DNA of 32,408 bases from Pseudogymnoascus verrucosus (GCA_001662655.1 KV460206.1), one strand, 5' to 3'. Counted from the first letter of the stretch, positions 1 to 26,359 are shown. Notes: generated from the sequence alone by a model not told the origin. Numbers and translations: made by a program.

Positions 1-1157
1 CCCTCCCCCTCCCTCGCCGGCATAACCGGCAACACATACGGCTCCCCCTGCCCAACCCCCCTCAAATCCGCCCGCTCCATCATCTCCGTAAAAGTAGTCT
101 GCGCCGACTGCCTCCGCTCCTCCACCCCCAACCCGCCGCTGCGCGCCGTACTCGGATCAGCGAAGATATTAATACTCTCCGAGCTGGGCTCTCGTCTCAG
201 CTGGCCCCCTACAGCAGGCGCCTCCTGTTGATACGCTCTTAAATCGCGATCTGGCATCGGTGGGGCCACGCGCCGCGGGGATGGCGAGGACGGGAGGCCC
301 ATTCCCAATCCACGCGTCTGTCGCGCTCCTGCCGCCGCTGAGGAGGATTTCCGAAACAGGCTGCGCACCCGACTGATCCCCGTAGCGGGCGTGCCGCTCG
401 AAGTGCCCGGGCTGGAAGGCTGGTAGCGGCGCACGAAATCGGTGCGGAAGTCTGAGCCTTGGTAGGTGGGGGATGAGATTTTGGGGGCGCGGGCGTCGGC
501 GCGGCGGCGGCGGGCGCCGAGGAGGCAGAATGTGGTGAGGGAGAGGAGGATGCCGGCTAGGATGCCGGGGAGGAGGCCGGTGAGGATGGCGGTTGTGGGG
601 AAGCGGGGACAGGTTGCTGGGATGGCGGTGGGGTTGATGGAGAGGGCGGAGATGGTCGTAGAGGTGTCTCCGGCGGAGGTCGAGTCTGCTGGGAGTGTGG
701 AGGTGGAGGATGGTGATGTGGATGAGGCTGGGGAGGATGGGGGGGGGAGGAGCTTCTGGTCTAGGTCCTGGACGCAGATTGCTGTTTTGCCGGTGCCGGA
801 ACAGGTGAAGCCGAAGGGGCAGCATTTGTCGCCGCATGCCGGCAGCTGGGTGCCGGTTAGATCGGTTGTCTTGACGGTTGATTCGGGGTGGAGGGTGGCG
901 TTTTGGTATGGGGTGCCGCAGAGGATTGGGTTGATGGCGGTGCAATCTCCGCCAGCGGGGCAGCAGAGAAGCGTGGTGTTCGAGGCGAGAGTGATGCAGC
1001 TTGAGCCGCTGGGACAGCAGAAGTTGGAGGGGAAACCGGAGCCGTCGCAGAAGTCGAAGTTGGCAGGGCATGCTGCTGAGGTTGTGGTGATGAGGTGGGT
1101 GAGGGTGGCTAGGAGTGTTAGAGCCAGACCCAGAGGGTTGAGGTTTTGTTTCCGCAT
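1..1157 (-). CDS. Signal-peptide, cysteine-rich, single-pass (type I) membrane protein, IDC3/SymC-like; 3' end lies outside the window
   Basis: Manual translation from the ATG at 1157 is open to the window edge (385 codons; it has no stop, so the ORF track missed it). It reads MRKQNLNPLGLALTLLATLTHLITTTSA (signal peptide), then CPANFDFC...CCPSGSSC...CCPAGGDC...C...CGDKCCPFGFTC...C (14 Cys), a Ser/Thr-rich stalk, a TM helix (AILTGLLPGILAGILLSLTTFCLL), RRRR stop-transfer and a Pro/Ser/Arg-rich tail. The IDC3/SymC assignment rests on architecture recalled from memory, not on a search. Confidence 0.85.
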   Translation of the reverse strand, partial: MRKQNLNPLGLALTLLATLTHLITTTSAACPANFDFCDGSGFPSNFCCPSGSSCITLASNTTLLCCPAGGDCTAINPILCGTPYQNATLHPESTVKTTDLTGTQLPACGDKCCPFGFTCSGTGKTAICVQDLDQKLLPPPSSPASSTSPSSTSTLPADSTSAGDTSTTISALSINPTAIPATCPRFPTTAILTGLLPGILAGILLSLTTFCLLGARRRRADARAPKISSPTYQGSDFRTDFVRRYQPSSPGTSSGTPATGISRVRSLFRKSSSAAAGARQTRGLGMGLPSSPSPRRVAPPMPDRDLRAYQQEAPAVGGQLRREPSSESINIFADPSTARSGGLGVEERRQSAQTTFTEMMERADLRGVGQGEPYVLPVMPAREGE

Positions 1158-1217
1158 CGCGGTGATGGGGTTGTGGTGTTCGAATATATGTAGGTTCGTC
1201 TTCCAAGCCCTCGAAAA

Positions 1218-1273
1218 TAGTGTAGAAGGCAGAAGCCTCAAGCCGTCGGAAGTAGTGTAAAAGGCAGAAGCCT
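1218..1273. repeat. 21-bp direct repeat, 35-bp period
   Basis: TAGTGTAGAAGGCAGAAGCCT (1218-1238) and TAGTGTAAAAGGCAGAAGCCT (1253-1273), one mismatch. Confidence 0.8.
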
Positions 1274-1937
1274 ATCCAAGTTTATAGTGGTCCTGTCGCT
1301 TGAAGTGATTTCACCGAATGCTTCCTCTTCAAACCCCAAAATCGTTGTGTATTCTTCACCTCCCAAGATCTCTCGATGATCGTATATTCTTCACCGTTCC
1401 TTGCGTCCAAAAAAACAAGCAGCAGAGAGAAGGCGTGAACAGAACAGAGAGAAAGACGGTGCGTGAAACAAAAACGAAATCCAAAGAAACAAAGGAACCA
1501 CCTACCACCACCCCTAACCATCTGACTCCCTCAGTCCCACCATCCCCTTCCGGGAAACACAAAGAGAGAGCCCCCATCTCCATCCATCGCGCTCGCCCTC
1601 CACCACACGCGCGCGACGACCACCACAAATAGCACAACGCGTCCCACACTCCCTTCAACGCCCACACCACACATTCACAGCACTCACCTTTGTCCTTCCT
1701 CCACCCACGTCACTCCTACCCCCTGTCCACGCACCTCCACCCCCCGACGCGCGCGCCGAAACAAAGCTTACGCGCGCCTGCGGGTTGACTGGCTATCGGC
1801 GCTTGCAACTCGATAAGAAAAGAACGGGCGAGGCTATGCTGTGGATCAATCAACCTGTGGTGGTACTCTCTTGAGGATTTTCCAGGGAAGAGGGTTGTGG
1901 ACGGGGATGATTGGTTGTGGGTAAAGTTAGGTGTTTC

Positions 1938-1945
1938 GGCGCTTA
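1938..1945 (+). promoter_or_regulatory. GGCGCTTA, a candidate PRO1/ProA/ADV-1 binding site
   Basis: Exact match to the reported PRO1-family consensus, ~780 bp upstream of the ATG at 1157. A 7/8 copy (GGCGCTTG) lies at 1798-1805. Confidence 0.5.
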
Positions 1946-3182
1946 TGAGGCGCGTAGAGGGCGGGCTTGCTGATTGGCCGGCTGGCTTTACGCCCCGAAT
2001 CGATCGCGGATTTATGCGGGAGAGGAACTACCAATACCCAGGGCACGCGTAGTCATCTGATCTCGTGGTGGGATTGGGGATATTCTGGGATGTTTGGGTG
2101 GGAAGTTTCGAGGTGGGAAGGGGTGGAGATTGGACGCTGCTATGAATGGGTGAGGGTTATGTCGAATAGTCGTTGGAAGACGGATACTGACCAGACAATT
2201 CATACCATCTCAACACTACAACTAACAATCAATACCTAATACACAATAGCTGAACTCCGCTACCCTCCGCATGCACATGTGACTCCCACCTTCTACCTCA
2301 TCTCAGCTCAGCTCGTCCCATACCGTCCCCTCCCCTCCCCTCCGACGAGTGGAAACGATTGGAAGCGACGGGATGGGATTCCTGTTTCCCATGTTTACAG
2401 CTTCTTACCCCATATCCACTCGGTGCGGACGGTACGTCATTATTATGACGCCCGAGTCTGGGCGTTGGGCTGGGGGGGTAAGGCATGGAGAGGAGGCGGT
2501 GAAGCGGTGAGGTGGAGACGCAGGGTGGCGAGGCGGCGAGGCGGCGGGGTAGGTCATCATGGAATGGATCTTCTTCTCATGGAGAGGCGCGGGCAGAAGT
2601 CTCTGGGGAGGGGGATACGGAATAAATGATATGGTGCTCTAGAGTACCAGCTCCACGTTCTCAAATCGAGACGAGATCAAGTCACTCCACAGCCCAACTC
2701 CCACCCAAAACCACTCACTGAAAAATCACAAGCCAAGCAACAGTAGCAGTAAAGAACCATCGATATAGTTTATAAGTTATTTTATTCGCTCCCCCAAAGG
2801 GGAGGTTGATTGACTATCCTATTCCTATTCTATTCCCAATATATCCCCCCGTAGGAGCTGTGCTCAACTACCCCCCCCAGCCCAATCCCGCCCCGAAAAA
2901 TAAAAACTCCTATATTGCGCCGTATAAGGGTATGCCTGCCTGCTATGCATATGTACCAAAATCCAAAGTCTCCAAAAGAAAAAAGAAGTGAAGTAGTGTG
3001 TGTGTGTTGCGGTGTAGTGATGATGGCAAAGGCCGCGAAGGTCCGCTGCCCGAGCTGATGATAATTCCCTCCATTCCAGTCCCCATCCAGTCCATCCCTC
3101 CCAAATCCAGCCGTCCAAACAGAACAGAAAAAAAAGAAAGATAGAACAAATAGCTGTTTTTCCCACAGGGAAAATAGACATT

Positions 3183-5305
3183 CTAGATCAACAAGAAGTC
3201 CCAGCCTTTGCTCTGCATGACATCTCTCCAGGAGACGACGACCTCCGGCTGCGCGTCCGCGCGCGCCCACACCTCGCGCAGGAGGCATGCGACGCGGCCG
3301 AAGCTGCCGCAGTCGGCGGCGTTGCCGAGGTCAGCAACGCGCGCGTCAAAGAAAGCGCGAAAGCTAGATCCAGCGGTGCTCACCGCGCCGCCCATGAGGT
3401 AGACCCAGACCATGCTCTTGTCGAAGCCATGTGCACCGGCGGGGATGAACGCCAGTACGCGCGTCAGGTTGTCGACGAGCCTGATGCAGCTTTCCTGCGC
3501 GGGCGAGAAGCCCGGAACAAGGGAGCACAAGTAGATGCGCGCGGCGATGCGGAAGGCGGCAGTGATGTTGACGCTGAGCTGGTCAGCGTCGAGGACGCCG
3601 TTGGCATCGAAGGGGTTCTTGAGGCTCATGGCGCCGTTCTCGGTGTGGGTGATGTGCTCGCCGAGGGTGGTGATGTAGGAGCACAGGACGTCCATGCCCA
3701 TGCCGCTGTGCTTGAGGCCCTCGAGGCACGCGATCTCGGAGATGAGGAACATGACGCGGTCGTCGCAGCCAGTCAGCTCGCGCAGACCGAGGCTGGTGGA
3801 GCTGAAGTTCTTCTCGCGGTAGGTGTCGGCGAAGGTGGGGGAGCGGCCGACGAGGGCGGCGCCCAGGATGTCGATCCAGGACATCAGTGTCATGTTGAAG
3901 GGCGCGGATGCTGTGTTCGAGGTTGCCTGTGCGGGAAGATCGAGCTTGTGGACGAGGTCGCTTGCAGCGTGGAAGTGCTGGTGCCACGAGACGTCTGGGA
4001 GAGCCTCGTCGACGCGGCCGACGGCACATTGGAGGAAGATCATGCCTAGTGTCGTATCGAGGATCTGCTCGGTCGGCTCGTTGCGCCCGATTGATGCGCA
4101 CAGCTCGCGGATTCCTGCCTGACGGTGGCGCATGATATCCGCGTCGATCGCATCGCTGTTCTCCTGAGCGTTAACCGTAGACTTGTAGTGCTGTGCCGAG
4201 ATGTTGAGGGCGCAGTGCAGGTAGCTCTTATTGGTCTCGAGCGCAGGAAGGATCAGGTCCGAGAGCGTGGGAGCGCTCACATTAGCCTCGAGGACGGGGA
4301 AGATTGACGGAAGCACGTTCTGGATGAAGTGGCCAAGCAGGGACTCGTCGCTCTGCTCGAGGTCAGGCAGGAGCGGGTGGCTCGGGGCGGGGATGCCGTC
4401 GGGCGAGTCGAAGAAGTTTGCGGTAAGCTCCTCTGGCATCGACTCCCGGCGCTCAAAGTACATGTCGTCAAAATACTCACCGTCGCCCTTGTAGGAAGAC
4501 AGCGAGGCGTCTTGCGACGGGTGATACTCTTGGGGTGTGTGGAAAGTGCTGAATGTCGACACCGTCGATTCGCGCCTTGTCAGGCCATCTTCCATGAGTA
4601 CCTCGCGCTCAGTCTTGACACCGACCTCGTACGGCGCAAACTCGGAGTATAGAGGAGCATAATGCGCATGCGACGAGTGCATCTGCGCATTGTATGAGTC
4701 GTAGTTTGCAATGCCTGGCGCGACGTCGAAGTTGAAGTCGAGCGAGAATGTAGAGTCGGCCGAGCCGGAGCGCGTGCGATCAATCGAGTCCGAGTAGGTC
4801 GCCGAGGTGGGCAGAGAGTGCGAGAGTCCTGGTGGGGTGTCTGCGCCCGGCGGCAGGATTTGCGACGTCTTCTCGGAAAGCTTCTTGCGCTTGATGATCA
4901 TCTTGATGGTGTCCTTCTGGTGGCGGCGCGAATCGCCATTGCTCCACCACATTGGCCGTTTGTAATTGCACTCCAGACCGAGGTTCTTGCATGCCGAGCA
5001 GCACGGGCTGCCCTCGTCGCACTTCTTCCTTCGTAACCTGCAGGTGTAGCATCCTAATGGCGGGGAGTCTAGTTAGTACACGTGCATATTTATCATAAGC
5101 GACACAGAGCTCAGAAGGAAATTTTGACCGGTATCATAGTAAACAGCGCGGACAAACCTGTGCGAGATCTCCTGTGCATCTGTGCCTTTAACTTGTTCTG
5201 CTGAGTGCTGGTGCTGCTGGCCTTGGAAGCCGGCTTGGGCTTTGGTTGTGCCACGGCCATTGTGGTGGGATTCGTTCTGCTCATGGAGCTCGAGGTGAGA
5301 GACAT
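3183..5305 (-). CDS. pro1: Zn(II)2Cys6 transcription factor PRO1/ADV-1/ProA (NosA/RosA family); exons 5305-5158 and 5053-3183, 672 aa
   Basis: The spliced product contains KAQMHRRSRTG/CYTCRLRRKKCDEGSPCCSACKNLGLECNYKRPMWWSN...IKMIIKRKK, the PRO1 N-terminal signature. It has a C-terminal fungal TF domain ending WRDVMQSKGWDFLLI. The intron at 5054-5157 reads GTTTGT...ACTAAC...TAG, and the total CDS of 2019 nt is in frame. Confidence 0.93.
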
Positions 5306-6085
5306 GGCTGGTATTAAAGGGTATAAGCGTTAGGTGGGTGGTGTTATGCTTGCAAGGTACGTGCGCGCCAGTCGTCCGTAGTGTGAAGTGTGTGTGGGGG
5401 TGCAAAGAGGGGTGTGTGACTTGGGTGAAGGTCGGGCAAGCCACTTCGGGACAGTCGTGTCTATAGTGCGAGAGTGCGAGAGTTGGCGAACAGGGGATGA
5501 TAGGATATTGGCGAGACCAGGGAAAATTAGTAGTAATGCGTCGAAATGAATGATAGGATCAAAGCGAAGTCCAGCTTGGCTTTGGGTCGAAAGGTAATAA
5601 CAATTATTAAATGAAGGAGTAGTAATAGGTTGAAAGTCGGGAGAGTAGAAGAGGTGGAGGTGGAGGGAGAGGTTCGAGAAGAATAGCACACACGGTCTGA
5701 CTTTGGTTAAAATGGAGTTCGTGGTGTTGTGTGGTCTATATATCGACCAAGATGCAGGTCGAGTGAGGCCTCTCCAAAGACCTGAATCTATTTTTACATC
5801 TTTTCGAATAGGATGGGGGATGTTGTGTGCTGGAGTTAGTCGTGGATATTTTTGGCCCTCACAAACATGGCCTAGTGGGGAAGAAAACACTCGAGATAGG
5901 TGACTAGGCGAAGAATAGAGAGCCATGAGTGGATGGATCTATATTGGTAGCGGTGATCTATATGGGTGCATATGTTGTATGTGGGCGTGTTGGTGGGTGT
6001 TGTGCGGGTTGGTGTGGGTGAGAAAGGTGGTGGGCGTGTAAAATGTGAGAGTGTGAGTGTGAGTTGGCTGGGGGAAGAGTGCGTA

Positions 6086-6109
6086 AGTGTGTGTGTCTGT
6101 GTGTGTGTG
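6086..6109. repeat. Imperfect (TG/CA)n microsatellite
   Basis: gtgtgtgtgtctgtgtgtgtgtg within a TG-rich stretch upstream of pro1. Confidence 0.7.
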
Positions 6110-9100
6110 CATGTTTGTCTGCAGCTGGTCCAACCCTCGAAGCTGAATACTCGACGGAGAGTGGTGGATGGTGATGCACATCGACCAGGGTCCCGTCGAG
6201 TCTTTCCCTCTTCTGTTCGTTCTCCAAGCCAAGATTCACTAGTCTCATGATCCCCCATGTTCACAGCTGTCTATCGCTGCCCACATTGGGTGAACGACAA
6301 GGTGTTGAGGGGTCGTGAGCTACAGCGAGGGAAGGTGGCCTGTCCCCTCCAGCCAGTCAGACCAACAGATGGGTTGCGCCCAATAGCTATTTTCGCTGAG
6401 CAGCCGCCCTCATGCGCCTTCCCTGCCACCAAGTATTGACATGCAGCAGGGGTGGGCGAGAGACAATAAGCTTGTTCGTGCTGTGAGTGGTCCGAGGGCC
6501 AGTGAGAGACAACAGGGGGACAAGCAAGAGAGGGTTCTCTAAGAGGACGAGGACTCCAAAAAAAGGTTCTTGTCGATCCCCGACGCTACTGCGCTGTGTG
6601 CGTAAAATATGGAGGGAGTACATGAGCACAGGTATTGATGGTGGTCCGGCTAGGCTCTTTTCTTCACATCTTGCCGGCGGGATTACTGTTCCCCCGTGCG
6701 TGCGATGCTAGCTTGACCACCAGAAGAAAGAGTGCAGGGAAAAGAAGAGTGGGTGCTTGTCAAGGTGCTGTCAAGGACTGTCACCACAACAGTAAGTCCC
6801 ACTTCGATAACGATAGCTCGGCAGGCCCATCCATCCATCCCGACATCGATCATCGAGGCCTCATGCAAACTCTGGTAAGGGAGCAACCAATGTGGGCATA
6901 TCCAGTACATCGAGATACATACCCTCCACCCAACCAAAGCCATAATAACCACACATATAAGCTTCCATCAAGTATCCCCCTCTCGCGTACCATTCCAGAT
7001 GAGGAGATGTCCGTCCGTCGTTGCCCAGCTTCCTCACCCATCAATATCAAGGCCACATTATCTCCTACCCAGCCAGCCAACCAACGCCATATTCCTCCCT
7101 GGCACGGGATCTTGAAAAATCAGCACCTCACAGACAGCTGAAAGAACAGAAAAGCACAATCTGCCTCATCCCCCGTGATCGTCATAACATCCCCCCTCCT
7201 CGACCTGCCATACGCCATAGGGCAAATCCACTCATTTCATGCGCAAGTCAGGTGGAGAACCCCTCTTCACCACTCACGACCAGAATGCGCATCTGGCAGT
7301 GGCGGTGGACGGGCGGGAGAAAACCGTCCGTCCTAGCGTCCCGCGAAGAACCAAACGAGGCGTCCACAACGCTCGCCCATCACATCTGCAATCTCCAGTT
7401 ATCTCCAGTAGCAGCGAGTCAGCGGTCCAGAGCTCCAGAGAGCGGTCAGCACCAGTGAAGTGAGTGCGTACCACAGCACAGCACGCACCAGCACTCACGA
7501 AGACCCCCCCAATCCCCCCCAATCCTCCCCAACCTCCCCCCATCACCAGCGTTCATCGCATTCACCCGCCCCTCACCCAGCGCGTGATTCCTGCCCTTCC
7601 CCCACCCCATTCGCTCCCGTTGTTGTGACAGTTGCCCTCGGCGCAGGGATCCCGCATTAGCAACCCCCTAGCGTGCATTAGTCCCCTAGGCGACGGGAGC
7701 GACCGTCACCAATCGATGCCTCCCGGCGATTACGCGCTAGCCCCGATCTGGGGCTCGTGCGGTGCGGAGCCCGGGGGGGGAGGAAGGGACGGGGGTGAGC
7801 TTGGGCCAATGGGGTAGGGCGGGAGATGGTAAATGGTTCTTTTTGATGGTGCTGCGGGGGTTGGGGGTATAGCCGATATAGAGGATAGTGAGTAGAGTAT
7901 GCTTACTGGGACCTGGGCTGACTGAGGGAGGGGGTCGGATAGGATGGATGGGATGGGATAGGAAGAAGTAGTGGTTGCACGGAAAATTCGTGCCTGAAGG
8001 GTAATTTCGACATGTGGTACAGTAGAGTACACAGTATCACAGTCTTCACTTTCCCATCCCGCGCAGTCCATCGCCAGCAGCGAGCTGTGCGATGGTAATT
8101 ACACAGCAAAGTGTCACCGCATCCTCCCAGCGCACCAGCGCATCGTCTTTGCGGAACGCGAAGACAGCCCAGCCCGCCCTCTGTCTCCCAGCCGGTGAGG
8201 AACGGAGCGGAAAAGGTCGCATAATCAGATCCGATGATGACATACCGTTGCACCATGTGGACCTCAACTCAACTCAACTCTGTCCAACCCCCCATCTTAG
8301 CTCTTTTTCGCCTACCCCCGCCTCCCATATCCACCGGAGTATCTTCCACCTTGCACTTCCACACACTTGCACAGTGCACAGATCGTCGCACACCCCCAAT
8401 GGAGCATTGCGTACCCTCCACCCGCGATCAGCGGCAGCGGGTATCCGGCAGCAGAAGGGAGGGAGTACAACGACGTACAAGGGTACACGGTTGAAGTGGA
8501 CGGGCGGGCCAGGGATGCTCGGGGCTAAACCCAGGTATGTACGGATCGCCTGCACAGAGGGAAGTGTCTGCATGCACTTTACGAGTACATACATCACGGA
8601 AGGAAAAGGCTAGAGCTGGGATGGATGGAGGAGTGAGTGAGGGTTTTCATGTCGTGTCTGCGCGGAAGGAGCGCAATATGCACCCACGGAGGAGAGAGGG
8701 TGTCTGATCGCGTCTGCACGCTATATTTAGGATGGACGCATTCTTGACGCCGGCGTCGTGATGATTCGAGAGTTTAGCGCTCGTCATGTTCATCGTCTGT
8801 TCCTTTGTTCCTTCATGATCGCTGCCGCAGCCGCTGCTGCGCTCTGCCGTCGGTCGATCGATGCTGATGGCCCATTGTGCGAGCGGGGAAGGTGGTGGGA
8901 AATCCCGCCATGGCTCGCATGGACACCTTACCTTACGAGTACGATGAACGTGCGCGGGCGGCGGGCGGGCAGCGGTCAGGTCAAGGGTAGGCGAGCGAGA
9001 TGGGGCCGGCGGTGCGATCGCAGATTCGGTGGGGGGGGGACGGGGGGGGGAAGGGACGGACGGACGATGCGACTCTGCCGTTCTCAATCGCACTGTGCTA

Positions 9101-12100
9101 AATGCCGTGCTGTACTGTAAATCCTGGCCGCGTCTTAGCCCAATTAAACTCGGCCCAGTTTGGTTGTAAAAATGCAGACTGTGTGAATCCTTCCACAAGC
9201 GATCTGGCGCTATGGTCACCGGTCAATACGTGACAGCAGCCGGATGACGGAGTGAGGAGTCCGCTATTCGGCTATAGTGAATTGTATGAACGTGCGGGTG
9301 AGGAGTCTTCACTGTCTCTAACGATGTCTCGCGCTGGGCCGACGGTGGCGTACGTAGACTGGGGCAAAAAGCCTCGCGCTCGCTCGGCCGACTCCGCACT
9401 TGAAAACACGGTGAGGACAGCTCGCCCCTCGCCGCCCTCTCAGCTTGCTCCGACAAAGTCACGTTGAGATTGCGTCTCAGCACTACTACAGAGTCATGTG
9501 TGCGGCTTAACCCAACCAACTCTTCCCCTCCCCGCCAACCTCGCTCCAACTTCGGTCGCGTCCCGCTCAACCCCTCAAGGCGGTCTGCAGAGAAGTTTCG
9601 GTCGCCAGATGGTCTCGATGCTGATCACCCGGCCCATCTGGTTCATGCACACCATACCCCCCACACCCTCGGCCGTTCTTGCATCTTCGAGATCGTAGTG
9701 TTCGCGCGAGCTATTCGCTGAACGGCGATATTTCGCATCGTAGCTAGGTCGGAGCCCATTTTCTGTTGAAGACGAGATAGCAGGGCTCGTCGCATAGAGG
9801 TCTGGTCATGTGAAGAGCGTGTGGGTGAGTATGGGATGGCAATTGGATGGATAAGGCCAGAGAAGGGGGGGAGTCACTTGGAATCTTTTTCCGAGTGGAT
9901 GTTCTGTTGTGAGAGTCATAGAGAGCGGTAGAGAGTGGCTCTTGTGGAGTTTGATCGCGCGACGCTCGGGTAGAACTATGCGTACCACTGTTCGTATGCC
10001 GCATGCCGCTCAATGCCGTACAACGCGTACTGCGACTGGGACGTTTTCAAAGACCAATCCACAGCGGACAGCTCATTGTGTGCAGTCCGATATGCGACCT
10101 CCCGTCCATAGATGCACGTGTGCGCCTCCATCCTTAGTAGAAAGAGGGGAATAGGTTACGAGTTTCGATACCAACGTAACTCCAAATATTCCGTCTTGGT
10201 AACGAATTATGCAGTGGGTATATCCCAAGTACTCGCTGCATCGCATCCGATCCCGACGACTGTGAAAAAAAGCAAGAAAAACTTAATAACATAGCAACCA
10301 TGTCAAGCTGTCGTCCTCTCCAGGATCAGATATCTCTCATTCCCATCCTAGCATGCACCCCCAATATAATGTCGTCACTCAACGCCACCGCTTTGAGCAA
10401 TTCCTCACGGACAGCATTATCTGTTCTGAATTAAACGGTCGGGGAACTGACGGAGACCGGGGCTGCTGCAGCGGTTATGCTCTTGCTAAGGCAAGGGGAT
10501 CGCGATGTGCACGGCGGTGTGTGCAGTAGCTCGAACTTGGGTAGTGCACTGCGCAGTAGCAGGGAAGAGAGCGTCGCATTGGGCTTGGAAGGGAAAGTCG
10601 AGCATATTTGTGGCGTATAAGTGGCGCCCAACCCAAGCAGGCCTCGAATCGGGCGGTGGGGGGGGGAGAGTGAAGAAGAGAGGGGTGGAGGAGGAGCCAC
10701 ATCCCGCACATATCCCACTTTTGGCAACTGGACAGCCATACAGATAGACAGAGCGGGCCATAGAGCGAACGACCTGTTCAATTTTCCTCGGCACATCTGG
10801 TCGCTCCGAGACACCTGCGTCAGAATGCCGCTGCGTGTTTCTCCACCATTACATTCCTTTTCGCCTTCGTTGCCTCTTTTTATCCTTGCTTGGAGCGGAC
10901 TATGAGTGATATGTAAGACACTCAGAGAGTAAGACAGTAATGTAAGTCACGCCAGTTTCTCGCCATCGGGCCGCTCCTTCCCTTCCCATATCCGCCCCGC
11001 TTCGAGCCCTCTTTCTGTCAACTGTCACCCACCCTCGCTATCTATCAGAATCAGGGTCTCTTGACAGGAAGGAGGGGACTGTTTCTGGGTCCCCATTGGC
11101 ACGGTGCAGGGACGGGACGGAGGATAATTCCCTAGACTGGATGTTTTTTCTCTATCAACGGCACCCCAGTGTCGGCCCGTTGATAGAAACGTGAGCTACT
11201 CGCAGTGGAAGCCCGCCAAAACAGGTAAGAAGGACATCTGAGAATAGCAAACTGGCCACTTGCAGAGCGCAGCGGGGGTTGGGGCAGAATAGGGTAAGAA
11301 AGGGTACGGCGCGTACAGCTGAGCATCGCTGCTAGTTGTAGTGTGACTGGCCAATGATAATTCGCAGCACAGTATCTCCATAAATAACCGACCAATGAAA
11401 AAAATCGGAGGACACACATCGGCTCAAGTTGTTTTGAACAGGGAGTATTTCTGTACTATGCATGCACTTTGCTGTGGTAACCGGCCATCACCACCTGATC
11501 CATGTCTGTCGAGAATTAAGATGGTACTTTGGTTGCAAGTATTCTCACTGGGATGGGGGTTGAGGATGACCTGTTGAGGGTTGTTGAGGGGTGCTGTCTG
11601 TTGCTGAATGTTGCTTGGTCGTCCACTGATTTATCACCTTCCAACCAACCATCTCAGCCCCCAATCACCAACATACCGCCCCCTCCCCCTCCTGACTCCC
11701 CTCCAACTGCCCTCCAACCTCCCCTCATACAAACCCAACCTCTTCCTCGCTCCAGCACCAACAGAGGTACTTCCAACTCCAGTACCATCCCCAGCCAACC
11801 CCGGGGACCCCAGTGCGACCATCGGAGAGTCGACTCCTCCCATCCCAGAATAGCATTTGTCCCTCCAATTGTGAATCGCACCATACTCCCATGTCCTATC
11901 TCGTGCAGCTATCACAGCAAATATCACATCGCCATCACAGTGGGCACAGCACCTTCCCCCCCAGCACTGCCATCGTGGCCGCCCGATTGGCGCCATGAAA
12001 CCATGCCTCTTTTCACACATAGTGTCCAACCGCGAAACAGCCACCTCTTGCCCTCCCCGCGATGCCCTCGGCCGTTTCCTTACTTATACAGACCGTAGCC

Positions 12101-12412
12101 GCCAGGCATTTCATGCCCCTCTCCTCTTGATACTTCCTTGAACCAAAAATCTCTCTCACTTTTCCCTATACCCAGTAGCGTTTCATCAGTTGTCAATCAG
12201 ATCCTCCCTTTTTGCAGTATCATCTCGCTCGGCAAATTAGAAAAATCGGAAAGAGTATCTTTTTTATATACACACCATAACGAAATTCCGGCAACGGGCA
12301 AAACAACGATTATATATCCCCAGAGTCAGAGACGTTTGAAACGAGAAACAAGACATCGTCGCACTATCACCCTCGCGCATTACCACTTTTGTCGCGAAGA
12401 CGCCCCGGAGCC

Positions 12413-14823
12413 ATGGCGACTCGCCAGCAGGCCAGTAGTAGCCGGCGCGCATCCCAACTCTCACAGCAACGCACCGCCGCCCTCCCCCCGCTCGACACCC
12501 GCGGCGAGATGTTCCAAAAGGGCCAGCATGGTTCCTTCTTCGACATGAAGGCGCTGGCGCCTCGTCCAATGTCGTCGTCGACGGAGATGTTTGACACAGA
12601 CTTCGAGGACGATGGCAGCGAGATCGAGGAAGGCGAATACTCGCCCAGGATCAGCATTAACTCCGTATGTGTGCCCGCCCGTCGCGGCGCATTTCTTGTT
12701 CAATATAGATTACTAACATGCGCTCACAGGCTGGACGGAGGAGTCAGACCACACTGTCCTCATTTGAGGACCTGCCAACGCCAAAGTCAAATAGCTTCCA
12801 TGGCTTTGACTTCCAACTCCAGCAGACGCAGGCGCCGCGCAAGTCAGTAGAGGGACCAAAGGGACCGCATCTGTTCAGGATCTCCCAGGAGGTGGCGCCG
12901 GAGGAGGAGTACTATCTCACAATGTCGCCAGTGACCCCGCGATACGCACCATCGTCGCGGCCTGAGACGGCATTCAGAGTCCCATCGATGCCATACCCAC
13001 AGCCGGAGCTGAAGCATAGGCCAATCAGCACGCTGACGGCAGCCGTGACAAAACTGAATAAGATGGAGGTAGCCATGTGGACGCCCCGCCAGGTGGCGAG
13101 GTGGATGTACCATGCGGGGTTCGAGCCAGCTATTGTGGAGAAGTTCGAGGAGAACGATATCTCGGGCGAGATCCTAACCACCCTCAAGTTTGAAGACCTC
13201 CGGGAACTCGACATCCAGTCTTTTGGCCAGCGCCACAAGCTGTGGGCCGAGATCCACACCCTCCGCGGCGATGCAGTGGGCGCACCAACGTCGCCAACTG
13301 AGATCGACTGCGGATCGAGCGACGAGGATGAGCGCACGCACAAGAAGTCCAAGCCGCGCAGGAAACACAAGAAGGCCAGTTTCGAGGACATCATTTCCCC
13401 ACTCGAGTCCGTCTCCATCGTCGGCATCGAGCAGCTCATGCCCAAGGCGCACAAGTGCTCCAAGGGCGAGAACTGCTCGCGCTGGAAGAAGCAACAGCGA
13501 CTCATCCAACAATTCAAGATGGGCCACCCCGTCAGCCCAGACGGCGGCATGATCCTCATCGCCGGCGACCCAGGCAACCCCTTCACAGCGGAAGCCGTGC
13601 GCCCCTTCTCCGAAGCCCAGCCCTCTGTCGTCGCCTCCTCCGACCTCCTCGGCCCCGGCGAAATCCCCACCTTCTCCCACCTCGACCCCGAGCAGCTCGC
13701 CGCCCTCGCCTCGCGCGACCCCCAGGACAACGTCAAGCAATTCCTCAACTTCCAACACATCGACCAGAACTGGTCCTCCGAGGAGCCTCCCACCCCACCA
13801 TACGAGATGTTCCCCTCCCTCCCCGTCGCCCTCCAACACACCGCTCAACCCACCCACCCCCTCTCCAATCTCCGCAACCTCCCCAAACTCGCCATCCCCC
13901 CTCCCCGCCCACCGCGCTCCGCATCCGCAATGGCCTTCTCCCCAGGCCCCATGGACCGCGCTGAGGCCCTCTCCCCCGACCTCCGCAGCGCGCGAGAGCG
14001 CCAACCCTACCGCTTCGGCACCCCAGCCTCAGACATGGACGTCCCCGTCACAGCCATCAACCACGGCCCCATCTCGCGCGACGCCTCCCAGTCCGTCCCT
14101 CCAAACATGTCCTACCGCAACAACGTCCCCGCCGCCGGCCCACCCCTCTCCCGCTCCGCATCCCGCTCCTCCCGCCGCCCCTCCTACCAAGCAGGCCTCC
14201 CGCGCCTCGACGAGGACCCAGTCGTTGCCCCACCCCGCCCTCAGCGCTCCAGTGTCCTTGGACCGATCTCACCTCCAAGGCAGGTCGTGGCTTCAAACGC
14301 GTATTCTCCTGTTCGCGCGCCCGCTGAGCGTTCTACGGATGACTTGGGACACCAGGGGTGGATGCGCAAGCGCAAGACCCGCATGTTGAGGCATGAGTGG
14401 CACGAGCACCATTTCACGCTGCGCGGGACGCGATTGGCGATGCACAAGGATGAGCGCGCGCGCGAGGTTCTCGAGTCGATTGATGTGGATGACTACGCTG
14501 TCGCATGCAGCTCGCTTGCGTCGTCGAAGATCAACACCGCGTTTAAGGCGATGAATATTAAGTTAGGGAAGAAGGAGGAAGAGGGCGCGTTTGCGTTCCA
14601 GCTTATCCCCGCTGTGGTGGAGAAGGCAGAGAAGTTGAGGAAGAATAGGGAGAGTGGGATTTTTGGGAGTAGTAGTGTAGAGAAGGATAAGGTTAAGACG
14701 CATCATTTTGCGGTGAAGTCGAGGGATGAGAGGATTGATTGGATGAGAGAGCTCATGCTGGCGAAGGCGCTGAAGCAGAAGGGCGAGGGCTTCGAGATCA
14801 ATGTCAATGGCAACATGATCTAG
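12413..14823 (+). CDS. SAM- and PH-domain protein, HAM-9/Boi1-2-like; exons 12413-12664 and 12730-14823, 781 aa
   Basis: SAM domain: WTPRQVARWM...FEENDISGEILTTLKFEDLRELDIQSFGQRHKLWAEIHTLR. C-terminal PH domain: HQGWMRKRK...WHEHHFTLRGTRLAMHK...HHFAVKSRDERIDWMRELM. No SH3 domain was seen, unlike yeast Boi1/2. The intron at 12665-12729 (GTATGT...ACTAAC...CAG) joins in frame. Confidence 0.88.
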
Positions 14824-15855: not shown

Positions 15856-17403
15856 TCACAGAAGAACATCGGTGAACACCCCCTTCGGATCCCACTCCCT
15901 CTTCAAAGTCTTCAACTTCTCCAGTCTCCCCTCCCCAGGGAACCGACTCTCAATCGGCGTCTCCCTCTGCGAATTCTGGAAAGTCTCCGTCTCTCCTACC
16001 TCATACCTCTCCGTCACAATCCTCAACGCCTCAACCTGCCACTCCCACGCCGCCTCATACGACTTCTCCTCCGTATACCAACACACCGCCTCAATCCACG
16101 CTGCCACGTTCCTATGCCCATACGCACTCTCTTCCCACCTCCCCGCCTCTCCCTTTCCAACGTACATCAAGCACGCCATCGACCTCGCCGCCTGGGCGCC
16201 CTCCTTCTCAATAAACGACTCATACGCCTTCACCTCCGCCTCCCACACTGCCGGTTCCCCCGGAACCCTTGGAACTCCCGCAACAATATGTCTCTTAAAC
16301 CCTCCCGTCACGCAGAATGGATCAAAGTCATCGTTAATGTTCGCATAAGAGACGCGTTTCTCCCCCCACACGAATGGACCCAGCGCCTTGACAGGCGCGA
16401 AATGCGCATTAGCGTCCTCGCTGCTGCCGAAGAAGATGAGAGAGGCAAGAACAATGGTCGAACCATCGCCATGTGGTGATTTGGTAATGACCATGGCGCC
16501 CGCGGCACGGGGTTCGGGGGAGGCGGCGAGAGGCGCAAGCGCGCTGATCAGTTCGCCGATGCGGGCGGCGGGGAAGGGGGCGGCGGTTTTCCAGATGGTG
16601 CCGTCGGGGGAGTTGAGTACGGAGAGGGGGGAGGCGCGGAAGGTGAGAGAGGTTATGAGACCGAAGTAGGTGCCGGCTCCCTTGATGGCATAGAGGAGCT
16701 CGGGGTGAGAGGTGGCGGAGACGGTGATGAGGTCGCCGGCGGCGGTGACGAGACGCGCTGAGAGGATGGCGTCGGAGGTTTGGCCTAGGATGCCGGAGAA
16801 GATCGTGAGGCCGCCGTTGACGGCTGGGTGGGGTGGGGAGTTAGCTTTGTACTACGGAATTGGGCGGGGGACTTGTAAGGGTACGAACCTTGAGCAACGC
16901 TGCCGACCGTGTTCGCCGTGCCAAATGGAGCACATAAGCCTGCCTTATAGAGCGGAGCAACAGCATCTTTAATCTGTGAACCACCGCTTACAGTCACTGT
17001 ACGTGCCTCCTTATCAACAACAACAGCGTTGAAAGCAGTGAGGTCGATAATGATGCCCTCTGCGCCAATTGTCGACCAAAGGCTGTGGCCACCGGATTTA
17101 GGGACAAATTCCACGCCGTGAGCAACACAGAGCTTAACCTGCGACTGTATTAGAATCCCCCAATTGTGGATTTGTTAGGATGAAAGGACGAACAGTCTCT
17201 TGGACATCAGCTTCGGTAGCGACTGCGACGATGGCTGCTGGGGTCTTCTTTCCAATGTTGGTCCATCGCTCATGCAACACCTTAAACTCTGCATCTTGCT
17301 CCGTCACAATTTTAGAATTCGAGCTAAGCTTTGAAGCTAGGTCTGCGACCACATTTTTTGCGGCGGCATATAGCCCCTCGGTTGTGTTTGATGTTCCCGA
17401 CAT
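15856..17403 (-). CDS. FAD-linked oxidoreductase (VAO/PCMH FAD-binding, berberine-bridge/6-HDNO-like); exons 17403-17194, 17138-16889, 16823-15856, 475 aa
   Basis: Motifs: PAAIVAVATEADVQET/VKLC, KSGGHS (flavinylation His motif), IIIDL, GGLTIFSGILGQTSDAILSARLV, ELLYAIKGAGTYFGLITSLTF, and a C-terminal BBE-like LEKLKTLKREWDPKGVF. Two GTTCGT...CAG introns (17139-17193, 16824-16888) give an in-frame 1428 nt. No signal peptide. Confidence 0.88.
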
Positions 17404-18858: not shown

Positions 18859-19805
18859 TTATAACGCCAACACAGACGCCAAGAGGACTGCCAACGCCAA
18901 CAACCCACCGCGAACCCCGATTCTAACGCTGTCCCCCGTGTCCGTAGGCGCAGGGGAGCTGGAGGTGGTGGTGCCTTTACTGATCCGCGACGTACAAGTT
19001 CTACCTTGGCCTCCAGTATGGACCACGGCGTCGACCTTCTTCATAAATGCTGCACAATCGAGCTTTCCCGTTGTGTAGATGTCAAGACTCAACGCCTCAT
19101 TCAAAGCCGGGAACTCAATACTAAGAGGATGTATTAGCCTTGATGATCGGAGGAAGATGGTTCAGATGGGACTCACGCATCAATATTGCCAGTCAGACTT
19201 ATGTTACGGGCATAGGACAAGCTCGGGAAGGAAAGCTTGATGGCTGGTCCATCTGATAGATCAAATACCAGGCTCTCGGTGACGTTCTTGAGCTTTGGGA
19301 CGTTCAAACTTGTGAGTGAAGATACATGGGAGATTATGAAGCTCGATGCGACATTCTCGAGGCCTGGTAGGTCGAGGCTGGTAATATTGCTGGAGTATAC
19401 GGCACCGAGGTAGGCTGGTGAATTGAGTACGATGCTGCCATTGACGGTGATACTAGACGCTTCGGCCATCCCAGGAATTGCCAACGGCCCTTTGATGGTC
19501 CCATCGATGAAGATCTTGTACGGGTGGGGTGTGCAATTGGCCGTAATAGCTTCATTCGTGCTATTGACTTGTACGACTTCGCCATCGCAACTGTAAGCAA
19601 GTCCTGCACAACCGGCGAGAGTATCTGCATTTGAGCTGTCGAAGGATAGGTTGCTACTCTTGCAGGCAGTTGCTGCGTATCCATAAATTAGCGTTGGAAT
19701 GTGAGAACGGGTAAGTCAGTGGCACCTACGAAGGTTACCGATTGCGGCCGCCGCAAGGCTCACTATAGACGCGCTGACAAGATGGCCGGAGAGTTTCATT
19801 TTCAT
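18859..19805 (-). CDS. Short GPI-anchored cell-wall protein, Ecm33/Sps2 (receptor L-domain)-like; exons 19805-19739, 19672-19177, 19120-18859, ~274 aa
   Basis: Signal peptide MKMKLSGHLVSASIVSLAAAAI. L-domain-like repeats: ITSLDLPGLENV, LTSLNVPKLKNV, IKLSFPSLSYA, IEFPALNEA. A Thr/Ser linker precedes a hydrophobic C-terminus (GGLLALAVLLASVLAL*). Introns are 19673-19738 (alternative in-phase donor at 19729) and 19121-19176 (GTGAGT...GCTAAT...TAG). Confidence 0.8.
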
Positions 19806-20041: not shown

Positions 20042-20049
20042 TAAGCGCC
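20042..20049 (-). promoter_or_regulatory. GGCGCTTA (TAAGCGCC on +), a candidate PRO1 site
   Basis: Exact consensus match ~240 bp upstream of the GPI-protein ATG. It also lies in the 3' UTR of the acyl-CoA dehydrogenase. Confidence 0.3.
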
Positions 20050-20075: not shown

Positions 20076-22023
20076 TTACAATTTCGAAGCCGCATCACTT
20101 GGGGCTTCCCCAAAGCTGATCTTACTGTTCATCCTAACCCTCTCCTTCAGACTTCCCGACCCCTGAGCTTTCCAGTCGGTGGGACCGGCTAACCAACGCT
20201 TTGCTACCTCCTTGGCAACCTCATCTCCGTCCCTCCTCGCATCGATTTCCAACAACACTGCCCCTACAACTCTCGCAAGTTCAAGCAGCACCTCCCTTCC
20301 ATCAATAATCAACTCTTCCTCGCTCTTCTCCCTCACATTCGCAGCCCATTGCTCCCACCTACTTTGACCATCAAACCCGACCTTGGCGCCACCGATCCAC
20401 CTAGCCAGGGCCTCAAGCACCTCGTTGCCACTGCGTCCCTTCACAATCTTCACCAAATCCCAGCTCAGAGTCTCCGTCGTACCCTCCCAGATACTCAGCA
20501 CATTAGAGTCCCGGTAAATTTTTGCCACATTCAAATCCATCTCCTCATTCTCCAAGTATCCCACCCCGCCCAACCCCTCAACGCACTCCTGCAATCCAGT
20601 AATGCAAGCCTTAGCACTCCCCGCCTTCAGCACAGGCGTCAACACTCTCAGCAACTTCGTCACATCCTTCGCATCCGGAACCAGCGCCGCGTCAACTCCC
20701 TTCCCAGAGCTTGCCGATCCCTGTTCCGAGATTCCAAGCAACAAAACTGTGAAGAACGAAAGATGCATCCATCCCCGATACTCGACCTCATCCCTCGCCA
20801 TCACCGCAATATGACTGGGCATATCAATCAGTCTCCTTCCCCCAGCGACCTTTCTCACCCTCGCAAATGCCCGCTTAATTGCCAGCCCGCGTCCCCACGC
20901 CCCGACCGCCGTCACCGAATTATGCACGCGAGTGATATTCAAGATCGTTGAGATCTCACGGATACCATTACCTGCCTCACCCATTAGATGCGCGCGCATA
21001 TCCTTGACCACCAACTCCGCCGTCGGCAGCGACTTCGTGCCCAGCTTGTTCTTCAGTCGCTGGATCGTCACGCCGTTGAGCTCGGTCTCAACTCCGTCGG
21101 TGGTGCGCCGCATCGGCGCAAAGAAGGTGCTTAGCTTCCCCTCCGGGGTGCGCGCAAGAAGGATCGTCATCTGGGCGTCAGTGGCGCTGCTGAACCATTT
21201 GAAGCCGTTGATGGACCAGGATCCTAGCGGGCTGCCGTCGATGGACTTGGCGGAGATGGGAGACGCTGCGGGCGTGGCGAGCGTCTCGGTGAAAGAGACG
21301 TCAGAGCCACCAGGACGCTCGGTCATCCATTGCCCGGATGTCCAGGCTTTGGAGGGGGAGCGCGAAGTAAGGCGTGAGTAGGCGGATTGGAGGATGGGGC
21401 GGAGTTCAGGGGAGAGGGTTGGGGATTCCATTTGCCGCGATAGGAATCTTGCGGCGCCGTCGGTCATGGCCGACGGGCATGTTACGGAGGAATTGGAGGC
21501 GGTCCAAAGATGGTATCTGCTGAGCGTCAGTGCTGGGCCCTCAAGAGAGAAGAGAAGTTGTCTGTCACTTACTTGATAAATTGGTGCACTCGGCTGAATT
21601 CCTTGTGCTTGTTCTCGAAGGGGATAGCCACTATCCCCTCCTCAATGCCCAGGTCCTGAAGATTCCTCCATCCCTCACTTGTGATAAGCTCATCACGCCT
21701 CTTTCCAAACGTGTCCCATGTCTTCAGATATGGGAGGTTCTTCTCTGAATCCGCGACCCAATCGAGGACTTTCCTGGACAGAACCACATCCCCGAAGCGG
21801 TTAAGGTCGGGATATATTTCTTGCTGGACTTCGGATGGGAGATACACTGTAGATGTTATCATTAATTGCGTTATTCTAGTGCTGACAGGCAGTCTGTGTG
21901 AAACATACATGCTAGCACACGCTGCAGCGCCCGGTCATCCTGCAGTTGGTTTGGAACGATTGGACGTTCTTGGAAGAACCCTGCAGTGGAGCTGGAGGGC
22001 GTTGGTGCTGGCTTTCTGGACAT
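20076..22023 (-). CDS. AidB-like acyl-CoA dehydrogenase with PTS1 (-SKL); exons 22023-21909, 21846-21573, 21516-20076, 609 aa
   Basis: Motifs: CPSAMTDGA, SGQWMTERPGGSDV, INGFKWFSSA, QRLKNKLGTKSLPTAE, ILNITRVHNS, EGLGGVGYLE, YRDSNVLSIWEGT; C-terminus ASKL*. Introns 21847-21908 (GTATGT) and 21517-21572 (GTAAGT) give an in-frame 1830 nt. Confidence 0.92.
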
Positions 22024-22137
22024 TATAAGGATATTTTGATAACTTGATATATATATAACTGATTTGATATAAGCAGGGCAAGTGTAAATGCTGGTATTAT
22101 ATGACCCAAGAAGCTGGATGGACCCTCGTGATAGTTT

Positions 22138-26353: not shown

Positions 26354-26359
26354 CCGAGG
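26354..26359 (+). promoter_or_regulatory. FarA/FarB-type CCGAGG site upstream of PEX1
   Basis: Exact CCGAGG ~180 bp upstream of the PEX1 ATG. Confidence 0.45.

Follow-up and report, generated by a model that had tools for sequence, protein, structure and literature searches.

Whether three neighbouring genes are held together as one module of the cell-fusion and fruiting-body pathway is the question raised by a locus of Pseudogymnoascus verrucosus (Leotiomycetes). In the window, the whole 32,408-nt stretch of DNA analysed here, the order is LEFT (minus strand), PRO1 (minus), a spacer and a SAM+PH gene (plus). The sequence-only reading had proposed such a module, made up of a Cys-rich membrane protein taken to be IDC3/SymC, a PRO1-family Zn2Cys6 factor and a divergently transcribed SAM+PH protein. 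All three genes were found at the places given and their order holds; they are consecutive with the qualification that 7,107 bases (5306-12412), devoid of conserved coding sequence, separate the start codons of PRO1 and the SAM-PH gene. The original observation was confirmed and its interpretation was supported in part: the pairing of PRO1 with HAM-9 stood, whereas the identification of LEFT as IDC3/SymC was not supported.

The middle gene (3183..5305, minus strand) has two exons and encodes 672 aa. Exon 1 spans 5158..5305 (start codon 5305-5303), and exon 2 (3183..5053, stop codon 3183-3185 included), with the Zn_clus and Fungal_trans_2 domains, is covered by RNA-like contigs. The GT..AG intron between them (5054..5157), read from the sequence, splits the codon just before the first zinc-cluster Cys, and its joint was present in RNA-like contigs of the public runs X1 and X3, where 104 nt are skipped at 5052/5157. 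An N-terminal Zn(II)2Cys6 cluster (Pfam Zn_clus, E 7.5e-08) is followed by a fungal transcription factor domain (Fungal_trans_2, E 2.5e-69, profile positions 2-384 of 384), the arrangement that defines the PRO1 family. Matches named pro1 from Claussenomyces, Cadophora, Rhynchosporium, Sclerotinia, Rhypophila, Bombardia and Verticillium showed 54-63% identity at 100% coverage, bearing out the proposal that this gene is the PRO1/ADV-1 orthologue; the mean column identity in an alignment of 12 sequences was 75%, and the annotated protein P0185 corresponds to residues 16-672 of our model. RNA-like contigs extend to 5678, giving a 5' leader of at least 373 nt (5306..5678, minus) with no upstream ATG. 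A PRO1/ADV-1/ProA factor would be expected to be needed for hyphal fusion and fruiting-body development and to complement across species; PRO1 is known to integrate MAP-kinase, light/clock and velvet inputs.

The SAM-PH gene (12413..14823, plus strand), divergent from PRO1, encodes 781 aa in two exons (12413..12664 and 12730..14823), the second of which holds the Pfam SAM and PH domains. Its GT..AG intron (12665..12729, plus) was supported by RNA-like contigs of runs X1 and X2, in which 65 nt are skipped at 12664/12730, and an X1 RNA-like contig beginning at 12206 gives a 5' leader of at least 207 nt (12206..12412, plus), also with no upstream ATG. Identity to P0065, a protein of 779 aa, is 96%, and the homologues have SAM and PH as their only domains. 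In the numbering of the ORF 12718-14823, the SAM domain occupies residues 119-183 and the PH domain residues 545-681; the Pfam matches were SAM_1/SAM_2 and PH only, in agreement with the claim that SH3 is lacking, and the precomputed Pfam column gave no SH3 among the 120 homologues listed, which extend no further than Xylariales and Magnaporthales. HAM-9 has been described as an 869-aa protein whose single SAM domain is accompanied by two PH domains; here a single PH match extends over 137 residues for 100 profile positions, indicating that the domain contains an insertion. The combination that characterises HAM-9, a SAM domain with PH domain(s) and no SH3, was thus found in this protein, which matches HAM-9 in architecture and in its position beside pro1, as the sequence-only reading had supposed; on both grounds the gene is probably the HAM-9 orthologue.

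The conservation of this linkage was followed in 80 metagenome PRO1 loci, dereplicated to 59 clusters. Where the flank upstream of PRO1 was at least 8 kb long, it contained a SAM-PH gene on the opposite strand in 19/19 clusters; for a flank of at least 6 kb the figure was 21/22. The spacers measured 2.8-9.1 kb. Clusters with the pair span two deep PRO1 clades, and locus tags or contigs of equal length agree with the pairing in named Leotiomycetes and Xylariales. In N. crassa, positions derived from a published ChIP table place both genes on one contig, with the TSS of adv-1 at 6,097,443 (minus) and that of ham-9 at 6,112,190 (plus), i.e. head-to-head and 14.7 kb apart; their locus numbers, NCU07392 and NCU07389, are nearly consecutive, as the sequence-only reading had stated, although the pair is not strictly adjacent, since two genes (NCU07390 and NCU07391) are annotated within the spacer. 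In Pyricularia oryzae the two genes are MGG_00494 (Pro1) and MGG_00492 (Ham-9). The PRO1–HAM-9 head-to-head pair is old, as had been suggested, and recurs in filamentous ascomycetes that are only distantly related; no remark on the adv-1/ham-9 linkage was present in the literature searched.

An all-against-all tblastx of 18 loci served as a control for the flanking background. PRO1 bins were common to 17/17 other loci and SAM-PH bins mostly to 13-15, whereas every other flank bin was common to 0-8 loci, so that neighbours other than the pair are rarely shared. No other window gene recurred in related loci, where just single HSPs of ~30 bits were obtained. A molybdenum-cofactor (MoCo) sulfurase gene stays nearby in several loci, on either side, so that some of the retention may reflect slow local scrambling, not selection on the pair.

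The 7.1-kb spacer between the two start codons (5306..12412) has no conserved protein-coding content: tblastx against the 80 related loci gave no matches at 1e-4, bins away from the gene borders were common to 0-1 of 17 loci in the all-against-all comparison, and no Rfam family or tRNA was found in it. Two non-coding elements were detected by blastn. A conserved block at 5436..5756, overlapping the PRO1 5' leader, aligned with L001/L002 over 330 nt at 72% identity, with short blocks in L004 and L041, and a 25-nt element with a CCAAT core (7694..7718) was collinear and identical (25/25) in the closest related metagenome locus (L001/L002). Past these nearest relatives, no spacer sequence conservation was found by blastn or tblastx against related loci.

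The PRO1/ProA consensus 8-mer GGCGCTTA (PMC6589725 and PMC5217103) is not enriched in the window (two exact 8-mers; 7-mer, four observed vs 2.5 expected), and neither exact GCGCTTA nor the 8-mer occurs in its spacer (5306-12412), where the site closest to the SAM-PH gene is a one-mismatch site at 11308-11315. In a post hoc analysis of 22 related spacers, the 8-mer was observed nine times vs 3.2 in shuffles (6/1000 shuffles reach nine), two of the nine sites (L051 and L058) not being independent because of their shared context, and eight of the nine lay 365-1247 nt from the SAM-PH end; it was absent from 13 of the 22 spacers, and the 7-mer alone was not enriched (10 observed vs 12 in shuffles). 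In N. crassa, ham-9 is a direct target of ADV-1, which represses it, and the ADV-1 ChIP summits fall inside the spacer, 1.5 and 2.9 kb ahead of ham-9. Elsewhere in the window, an exact GGCGCTTA at 1938..1945 (plus) precedes the LEFT ATG by 781 nt and lies 1.24 kb past the PRO1 stop codon; the 8-mer was present in 1/8 related PRO1–LEFT gaps.

The left gene (LEFT, 3..1157, minus) starts at a Met codon at 1157, and its frame stays open for 385 aa until it leaves the window at the edge, the 3' end lying outside; the 407-aa database protein P0001 is identical to it at 384/385 positions. A hydrophobic, signal-like N-terminal helix (predicted at residues 8-24) is followed by a head with 14 Cys within residues 1-140, by a stalk of 62% Ser/Thr/Pro (residues 136-187), and by a predicted TM helix at ~188-222 and a cytosolic tail. 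The 14 Cys are invariant or near-invariant in alignments of 20 and of 150 sequences, and the family alignments revealed conserved tail motifs (RTDFLR, RVxSLF, EPSSESINIFADP and TTFTDMM). These features, with a single predicted TM helix, are those of the Cys-rich type I membrane protein that had been described from the sequence. No Pfam family was matched by the whole protein (E up to 0.1) or, above threshold, by the head alone (searched up to E 10). The AlphaFold pLDDT of the head is 93-96 in the whole-protein model, and its mean is 86.5 when folded alone; the head had no clear structural match (best Z 2.2), and its likeness to granulin stayed below any threshold (Pfam Granulin, E 0.22; granulin-5 in a PDB profile search, E 0.082; zebrafish granulin AaE, Z 2.1, rmsd 2.9, 47 residues).

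Among the metagenome loci, LEFT was downstream of PRO1 in 8 of 11 clusters of the Leotiomycetes plus Sordariomycetes-type clade and in 0/12 outside that clade. Consecutive accession numbers place it beside PRO1, or one gene away, in two species of Rhypophila, Podospora didyma and Bombardia, and two Sordariales-like loci (L024 and L038) have no LEFT within 7-8 kb of PRO1. Named Sordariales homologues (n = 10) have 420-513 aa and an N-terminal signal-like helix.

The reading in which the three linked genes constitute one cell-fusion/fruiting module, with LEFT as the IDC3/SymC orthologue, a PRO1 target kept beside its regulator, seems improbable when these data are set against what has been published on IDC3. 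Like LEFT, IDC3/SymC (Podospora IDC3, Epichloe SymC, Sordaria SMAC_00214 and NCU00938) is a membrane protein conserved in filamentous ascomycetes, and LEFT, which spans the membrane once, is likewise conserved, its cysteines included; the IDC3/SymC promoter is bound by PRO1/ProA/ADV-1 (ADV-1 ChIP summits lie at -751 and -1335 of N. crassa idc-3, NCU00938), and LEFT of this window has its one exact PRO1 consensus upstream, yet such a motif was found in just one of the eight related gaps. A review credits IDC-3 with 'two conserved cysteine residues', as opposed to the 14 near-invariant ones of LEFT. GFP-IDC3 has an expected size of 64 kDa, from which IDC3 itself would be ~37 kDa, whereas LEFT of this locus has 407 aa and its ten named Sordariales homologues 420-513 aa. 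IDC3 with a tag at its N-terminus rescues the mutant and is seen at its full size, which does not sit well with removal of a signal peptide or with a head rich in disulphides. Pa_1_1990, NCU00938 and SMAC_00214 are the published orthologues, and in P. anserina and N. crassa the gene is not a neighbour of pro1: the distance to adv-1 is 566 kb in N. crassa and ~815 gene numbers in P. anserina, although idc-3 and adv-1 share a chromosome in both. LEFT could have left PRO1 in some Sordariales, as these positions would require if it were IDC3, given the two Sordariales-like loci that lack it nearby; it nevertheless lies near PRO1 in Rhypophila, Podospora didyma and Bombardia. LEFT, set apart by the published descriptions of IDC3 (few conserved Cys, ~37 kDa, N-terminal tags tolerated, location away from pro1 in model species) and not by sequence comparison, is probably not IDC3/SymC, and the 'three-gene module' is consequently at most a regulator-target pair, PRO1 and HAM-9, with an uncharacterised, lineage-restricted neighbour.

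Two further explanations concern the pair itself. Passive retention, in which PRO1 and HAM-9 lie together as a neutral leftover of ancestral gene order, functionally uncoupled, and the long spacer is PRO1's own large promoter, would agree with the missing PRO1 motif in the window's spacer, with spacer conservation confined to the nearest relatives, with the lingering housekeeping MoCo sulfurase gene and with the lineage-restricted linkage of LEFT. We consider it rather unlikely, however, as order and divergent orientation were kept in 19/19 informative clusters from two deep clades while other flanking genes were common to at most 8/17 loci and switched sides, the 8-mer is enriched and clustered at the HAM-9 side of related spacers, and ADV-1 binds within the N. 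crassa spacer and represses ham-9. Still less probable is a spacer occupied by a gene that annotation has missed, or by a long non-coding RNA, and it would be this element, instead of shared enhancers, that ties PRO1 to HAM-9. N. crassa does annotate NCU07390 in its spacer (TSS 6,108,187, plus strand), with NCU07391 assigned to it solely by its number, annotations of other fungi such as Marssonina (8970/8973) and Oculimacula (4185/4188) leave one or two gene numbers between the pair, and a small low-depth contig of run X2 was seen at ~9.35-9.68 kb; but protein-level spacer conservation was absent, both between the window and 80 loci and among 18 representative loci, no Rfam family was present, and the gene numbers of Drepanopeziza, Claussenomyces and Hymenoscyphus albidus are consecutive for the pair or consistent with no gene between.

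The explanation we favour, held with somewhat more confidence than doubt, is that pro1/adv-1 and ham-9 are represented at this locus by their Pseudogymnoascus orthologues, divergent over a 7.1-kb spacer, and that LEFT, probably distinct from IDC3/SymC, is a type I surface glycoprotein, single-pass, conserved and uncharacterised, in tandem downstream of PRO1, which it would have joined only on the branch that gave rise to Leotiomycetes and Sordariomycetes. The long spacer may be a large cis-regulatory region for PRO1 that also acts as the HAM-9 promoter and includes binding sites for PRO1 itself; with enhancers shared in this way, a rearrangement parting the two genes would damage the regulation of one or both, and selection could have maintained their linkage. 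PRO1 acting on ham-9 within the shared spacer would amount to local feedback between a regulator and a signalling component of its own pathway. A bolder version, which we offer tentatively as a possibility, is that the spacer (3-15 kb), in which no coding sequence is conserved, is a fungal counterpart of a genomic regulatory block, a shared control region acting over a long range and locking PRO1 to its direct target HAM-9, that this lock predates the split of the major filamentous-ascomycete classes and PRO1 binding beside ham-9 closes a local feedback loop, and that LEFT might be an unrecognised surface sensor of the PRO1 pathway, captured into the block in an ancestor shared by Leotiomycetes and Sordariomycetes.

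Comparison with known systems places each component of the favoured explanation. Boi1/Boi2 of S. cerevisiae and Pob1 of S. pombe resemble the SAM-PH protein in having a SAM followed by a C-terminal PH domain, and some homologues are annotated 'BOI2' or 'pob1'; Boi/Pob1 proteins have, however, an N-terminal SH3 domain, which is missing from the SAM-PH protein and from the 120 homologues listed. In cell-wall stress sensors of the Wsc1/Mid2 type, a signal peptide and an optional Cys-rich head are followed by a Ser/Thr-rich stalk, one TM helix and, in the cytosol, a short tail with a regulatory role. LEFT shares this overall layout, with its signal-like helix, Ser/Thr-rich stalk, single predicted TM helix and cytosolic tail, and several homologues are named 'Mid2 domain-containing protein' in UniRef, but neither the WSC nor the Mid2 profile appeared among its Pfam matches (whole protein, E <=0.1; head, E <=10). 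The N. crassa adv-1/ham-9 locus comprises the same two families, head-to-head over a long spacer; this spacer is about twice that of the window and has two annotated hypothetical genes, and the gene downstream of adv-1 (NCU07393) is convergent, whereas LEFT is in tandem with PRO1. The concept of the genomic regulatory block comes mainly from animal genomes. In such blocks and in conserved bidirectional pairs, as at the PRO1 locus, gene order and orientation persist over long evolutionary distances where a regulator of development has an extensive regulatory region; the PRO1 locus differs from the animal blocks in comprising just two genes and in that the partner, HAM-9, is itself a target and a component of the pathway.

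Three genes were found in the flagged 14.8 kb. On the minus strand lie a Cys-rich single-pass surface protein gene (LEFT, 3-1157), whose frame is open from the start codon through the window edge and whose product agrees with a 407-aa database protein at 384/385 residues, and a PRO1/ADV-1/ProA-type Zn2Cys6 factor gene (PRO1), with exon 1 at 5305-5158 (148 nt), an intron at 5157-5054 (104 nt) and exon 2 ending in the stop codon at 3185-3183. On the plus strand lies a HAM-9-type gene (SAM-PH), whose first exon is 12413-12664 and whose second is 12730-14823, the intron between them being 12665-12729. Contigs from three public runs that were only guessed to be RNA (X1-X3) bridged both the PRO1 and the SAM-PH intron exactly, and a sequence check detected no upstream ATG in either leader; for these reasons, and on the gene models, the three-gene observation of the sequence-only reading was upheld, with the qualification that its "consecutive" genes include two, PRO1 and SAM-PH, whose divergent start codons are 7,107 bases apart. 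According to the RNA-like contigs, the PRO1 leader reaches at least to 5678 (a 5' leader of at least 373 nt) and the SAM-PH leader starts at or before 12206, while most of 5679-12205 was uncovered in X1-X3, which was not taken as a sign of silence.

By the names of the closest database proteins, the window belongs to a Pseudogymnoascus species, a Leotiomycete, and its genes add members to families already known. The 672-aa PRO1 product carries a Zn2Cys6 cluster and a fungal transcription factor domain (Pfam), and its relatives named pro1/PRO1 in Leotiomycetes and Sordariomycetes showed 54-63% identity over the whole length (mean column identity of 75% in an alignment of 12 sequences), so that the naming of the middle gene as PRO1 proved right. 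The 781-aa SAM-PH product combines a SAM with a PH domain and lacks SH3 (Pfam), and its best 120 relatives all had SAM and/or PH, with SH3 in none. It is probably the HAM-9 orthologue, as had been proposed, an assignment drawn from domain architecture and genomic position.

The age of the PRO1–HAM-9 linkage was assessed in metagenome contigs scanned with the PRO1 alignment, which yielded 80 loci (all oriented with PRO1 on the plus strand), grouped into 59 clusters at 95% nucleotide identity. SAM-PH was located upstream of PRO1 on the opposite strand in every cluster whose upstream flank measured 8 kb or more (n = 19/19), and in 21 of the 22 whose flank measured at least 6 kb; the sole miss (L070) has a flank of just 6.8 kb and groups with Sordariales-like loci having spacers of 8-9 kb. 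The spacers measured 2.8-9.1 kb between tblastn hit ends, with a median of about 4.5 kb (22 values). A maximum-likelihood PRO1 tree, obtained by quick search only, displayed two clades, one with 13 loci and every named reference from Leotiomycetes and Sordariomycetes, and a sister clade of 14 loci (SH-aLRT 100); the pair was found in both. Neighboring locus tags were observed in Hymenoscyphus albidus (left gene 804, PRO1 803, SAM-PH 802), Claussenomyces (left gene 7915, SAM-PH 7917, with pro1 on the same contig), Diplocarpon rosae (left gene 2874, SAM-PH 2876) and Drepanopeziza brunnea (SAM-PH 9162, PRO1 9163). In N. crassa, the transcription start sites derived from the ChIP table of PMC5217103 are 6,097,443 (minus) for adv-1, the pro1 counterpart, and 6,112,190 (plus) for ham-9 on the same contig, a head-to-head arrangement with start sites 14.7 kb apart and NCU07390 annotated between them. 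In Pyricularia oryzae, Pro1 is MGG_00494 and Ham-9 is MGG_00492, as given in the data-availability passage of PMC10320130. The sequence-only reading had suggested an old linkage from nearly consecutive N. crassa locus numbers, and the 19/19 informative clusters, the two clades, N. crassa and P. oryzae bear this out. In the literature library searched, no paper brought ham-9, pro1 and synteny together and the linkage went unmentioned: ham-9 appears solely inside a cited title in PMC9781702, and solely in an accession list in PMC10320130.

As an internal control for background synteny, covering 18 representative loci, an all-against-all tblastx comparison was binned. The PRO1 bins were common to 17/17 other loci and the SAM-PH bins mostly to 13-15, the spacer bins to 0-1 loci except those bordering PRO1 and SAM-PH, and all remaining flank bins to 0-8 loci. 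The only other recurrent neighbor, seen in several unrelated loci and absent from the window, was a molybdenum-cofactor sulfurase gene (Aminotran_5 + MOSC_N + MOSC; for instance, L047 80-2686, minus, and L036 12668-15280, plus). Its position varied: some loci carry it on the far side of SAM-PH, others downstream of PRO1, sometimes directly. This gene swaps sides, while the PRO1–SAM-PH pair keeps its arrangement. The right half of the window (20076-32031) holds housekeeping genes encoding an acyl-CoA-dehydrogenase-like protein, PEX1 (PEX-1N and two AAA domains), MCM7 and DAP3/S29, a mitochondrial ribosomal protein whose reading frame is interrupted near 31250 by an intron or a frame change. Apparent tblastx matches of PEX1, MCM7, DAP3, the acyl-CoA-dehydrogenase-like gene and the spacer in related loci were rejected, being single HSPs of ~30 bits carried by summed statistics; the other window genes were present in none of the related metagenome loci. 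Two open frames on the minus strand, at 15856-16851 and 19173-19715 (331 and 180 aa stop to stop), matched no Pfam family and were without a counterpart in all 80 related loci; they may be lineage-specific genes or pieces of intron-split genes.

The spacer between the two start codons (5306-12412) gave no tblastx hits for conserved coding content against the related loci, and window scans that included it revealed no Rfam family or tRNA. Against its nearest relative (L001/L002), blastn recovered several collinear blocks. A non-coding block over the PRO1 5' leader (5436-5756) was 72% identical over 330 nt, with shorter parts recurring in two other loci (L004 and L041), and two short blocks matched near the SAM-PH leader. 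At 7694-7718, 25 nt that include a CCAAT core matched L001 8043-8019 perfectly and collinearly where the spacer otherwise did not align, and may represent a conserved element of a promoter or enhancer. One small, low-depth X2 contig was also noted inside the spacer at ~9347-9680, with none there from X1 or X3; a minor transcript or DNA contamination could account for it.

In PMC5217103, N. crassa ham-9 is listed among the cell-fusion genes as a direct ADV-1 target, its mRNA goes up in the adv-1 deletion, and the ChIP table places ADV-1 summits 1.5 and 2.9 kb upstream of ham-9, within the shared spacer. The published consensus sequences (GCGCTTA for ADV-1 and GGCGCTTA for PRO1/ProA) were counted post hoc in 22 related spacers and compared with shuffles. 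The 7-mer was not enriched in these spacers (10 observed versus 12 in shuffles), but nine of the 10 were the full 8-mer, for which 3.2 were expected and nine were reached in 6/1000 shuffles. Eight of the nine 8-mers in the 22 spacers sit 365-1247 nt from the SAM-PH end, and their density was 0.085 per kb in spacers versus 0.010 per kb elsewhere in the loci; the 8-mer was absent from 13/22 spacers, and two of the nine sites are in related sequences. The window's own spacer contained no exact PRO1 consensus site, and the motif was not enriched over the window. The second exact GGCGCTTA of the window (20042-20049), which lies just past the acyl-CoA-dehydrogenase-like gene on its 3' side, probably occurs there by chance. 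The analysis leaves a regulator-target pair that is deeply conserved, divergently transcribed and separated by an unusually long spacer.

An exhaustive search for LEFT homologues (E <= 0.001) recovered 513 representative clusters, the named ones from Leotiomycetes, Sordariomycetes, Lecanoromycetes, Eurotiomycetes and one Dothideomycete. The 20 proteins named in the Sordariales search came from Rhypophila, Podospora didyma, P. australis, Bombardia, Cercophora, Echria, Diplogelasinospora and Chaetomiaceae, with no entry from Neurospora, Sordaria or P. anserina among them. Of the 23 clusters whose downstream flank measures 5 kb or more, 8 have LEFT in tandem with PRO1, 1.5-4.4 kb downstream of it; tallied on the tree, LEFT is beside PRO1 in 8/11 of the Leotiomycetes and Sordariomycetes clade versus 0/12 of the other. 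Accession numbers that are consecutive or nearly so also put the two genes side by side in Rhypophila sp., R. decipiens, Podospora didyma and Bombardia bombarda. LEFT and SAM-PH occupy separate contigs in Monilinia vaccinii-corymbosi. The reading that remains is that LEFT joined the PRO1–HAM-9 pair in one large lineage.

Alignments of 20 and 150 members showed 14 invariant or near-invariant Cys in the first 130 residues of the LEFT family, and four conserved tail motifs (SxPI…RTDFLR, RVxSLF, EPSSESINIFADP and TTFTDMM). The sequence-only reading had proposed that LEFT is IDC3/SymC, an assignment that is probably wrong, as judged indirectly by three published IDC3 traits (described in passages of PMC8032637, PMC6162560 and PMC6455062). 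A review describes IDC-3 with "two conserved cysteine residues", whereas the LEFT family has 14, and in PMC8032637 GFP-IDC3 has an expected size of 64 kDa, with N-terminal fusions full-size and functional. In P. anserina, IDC3 (Pa_1_1990) is far from pro1 (Pa_1_10140), according to a table in PMC6162560, and in the PMC5217103 ChIP table N. crassa idc-3 (NCU00938) is 566 kb away from adv-1, although idc-3 and adv-1 share one chromosome in both species. Also in favor of the assignment, two Sordariales-like loci are without LEFT near PRO1, and a relocation of LEFT is therefore possible; an exact GGCGCTTA is found 781 nt upstream of LEFT in the window, and the ChIP table lists ADV-1 summits at -751 and -1335 of NCU00938. 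The motif was present in just 1/8 related PRO1–LEFT gaps. Taken with these points, we consider it improbable that LEFT is the IDC3 orthologue.

Hyphal-fusion and fruiting-body genes are usually regarded as scattered, with mutants and ChIP serving to deduce how they are wired. A regulator-target pair whose order, orientation and unusually long spacer are kept across deep fungal lineages offers a testable place for long-range cis-regulation, with dozens of spacers to mine comparatively for conserved elements, such as PRO1 sites beside ham-9; the linkage is of moderate interest because it is directly testable. The tempting assignment of LEFT to IDC3/SymC would be corrected, and an uncharacterised, widely conserved surface protein is nominated for fusion and fruiting assays.

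The 14-Cys head of LEFT (residues 26-140; 738-1082, minus) contains three CCPxGxxC-like motifs and was modeled confidently by AlphaFold, with a pLDDT of 93-96 in the whole protein and 86.5 on average when the head was folded by itself. The whole model had no Foldseek match at E <= 0.001, its VIA list being filled by the TM helix, and the head alone had no convincing match to a solved structure (best Z 2.2, best Foldseek E 0.5). A granulin resemblance of the head was sub-threshold throughout (VIA Z 2.1 for granulin AaE, Pfam Granulin E 0.22, PDB profile E 0.082), and a new fold is not claimed. The ESM Atlas offered automatic names only (PIG-S, Mid2 domain, receptor kinase) and no Pfam family in common. 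Although a WSC or Mid2 profile is missing from its Pfam matches, LEFT has the same architecture as the Wsc/Mid2-type surface sensors.
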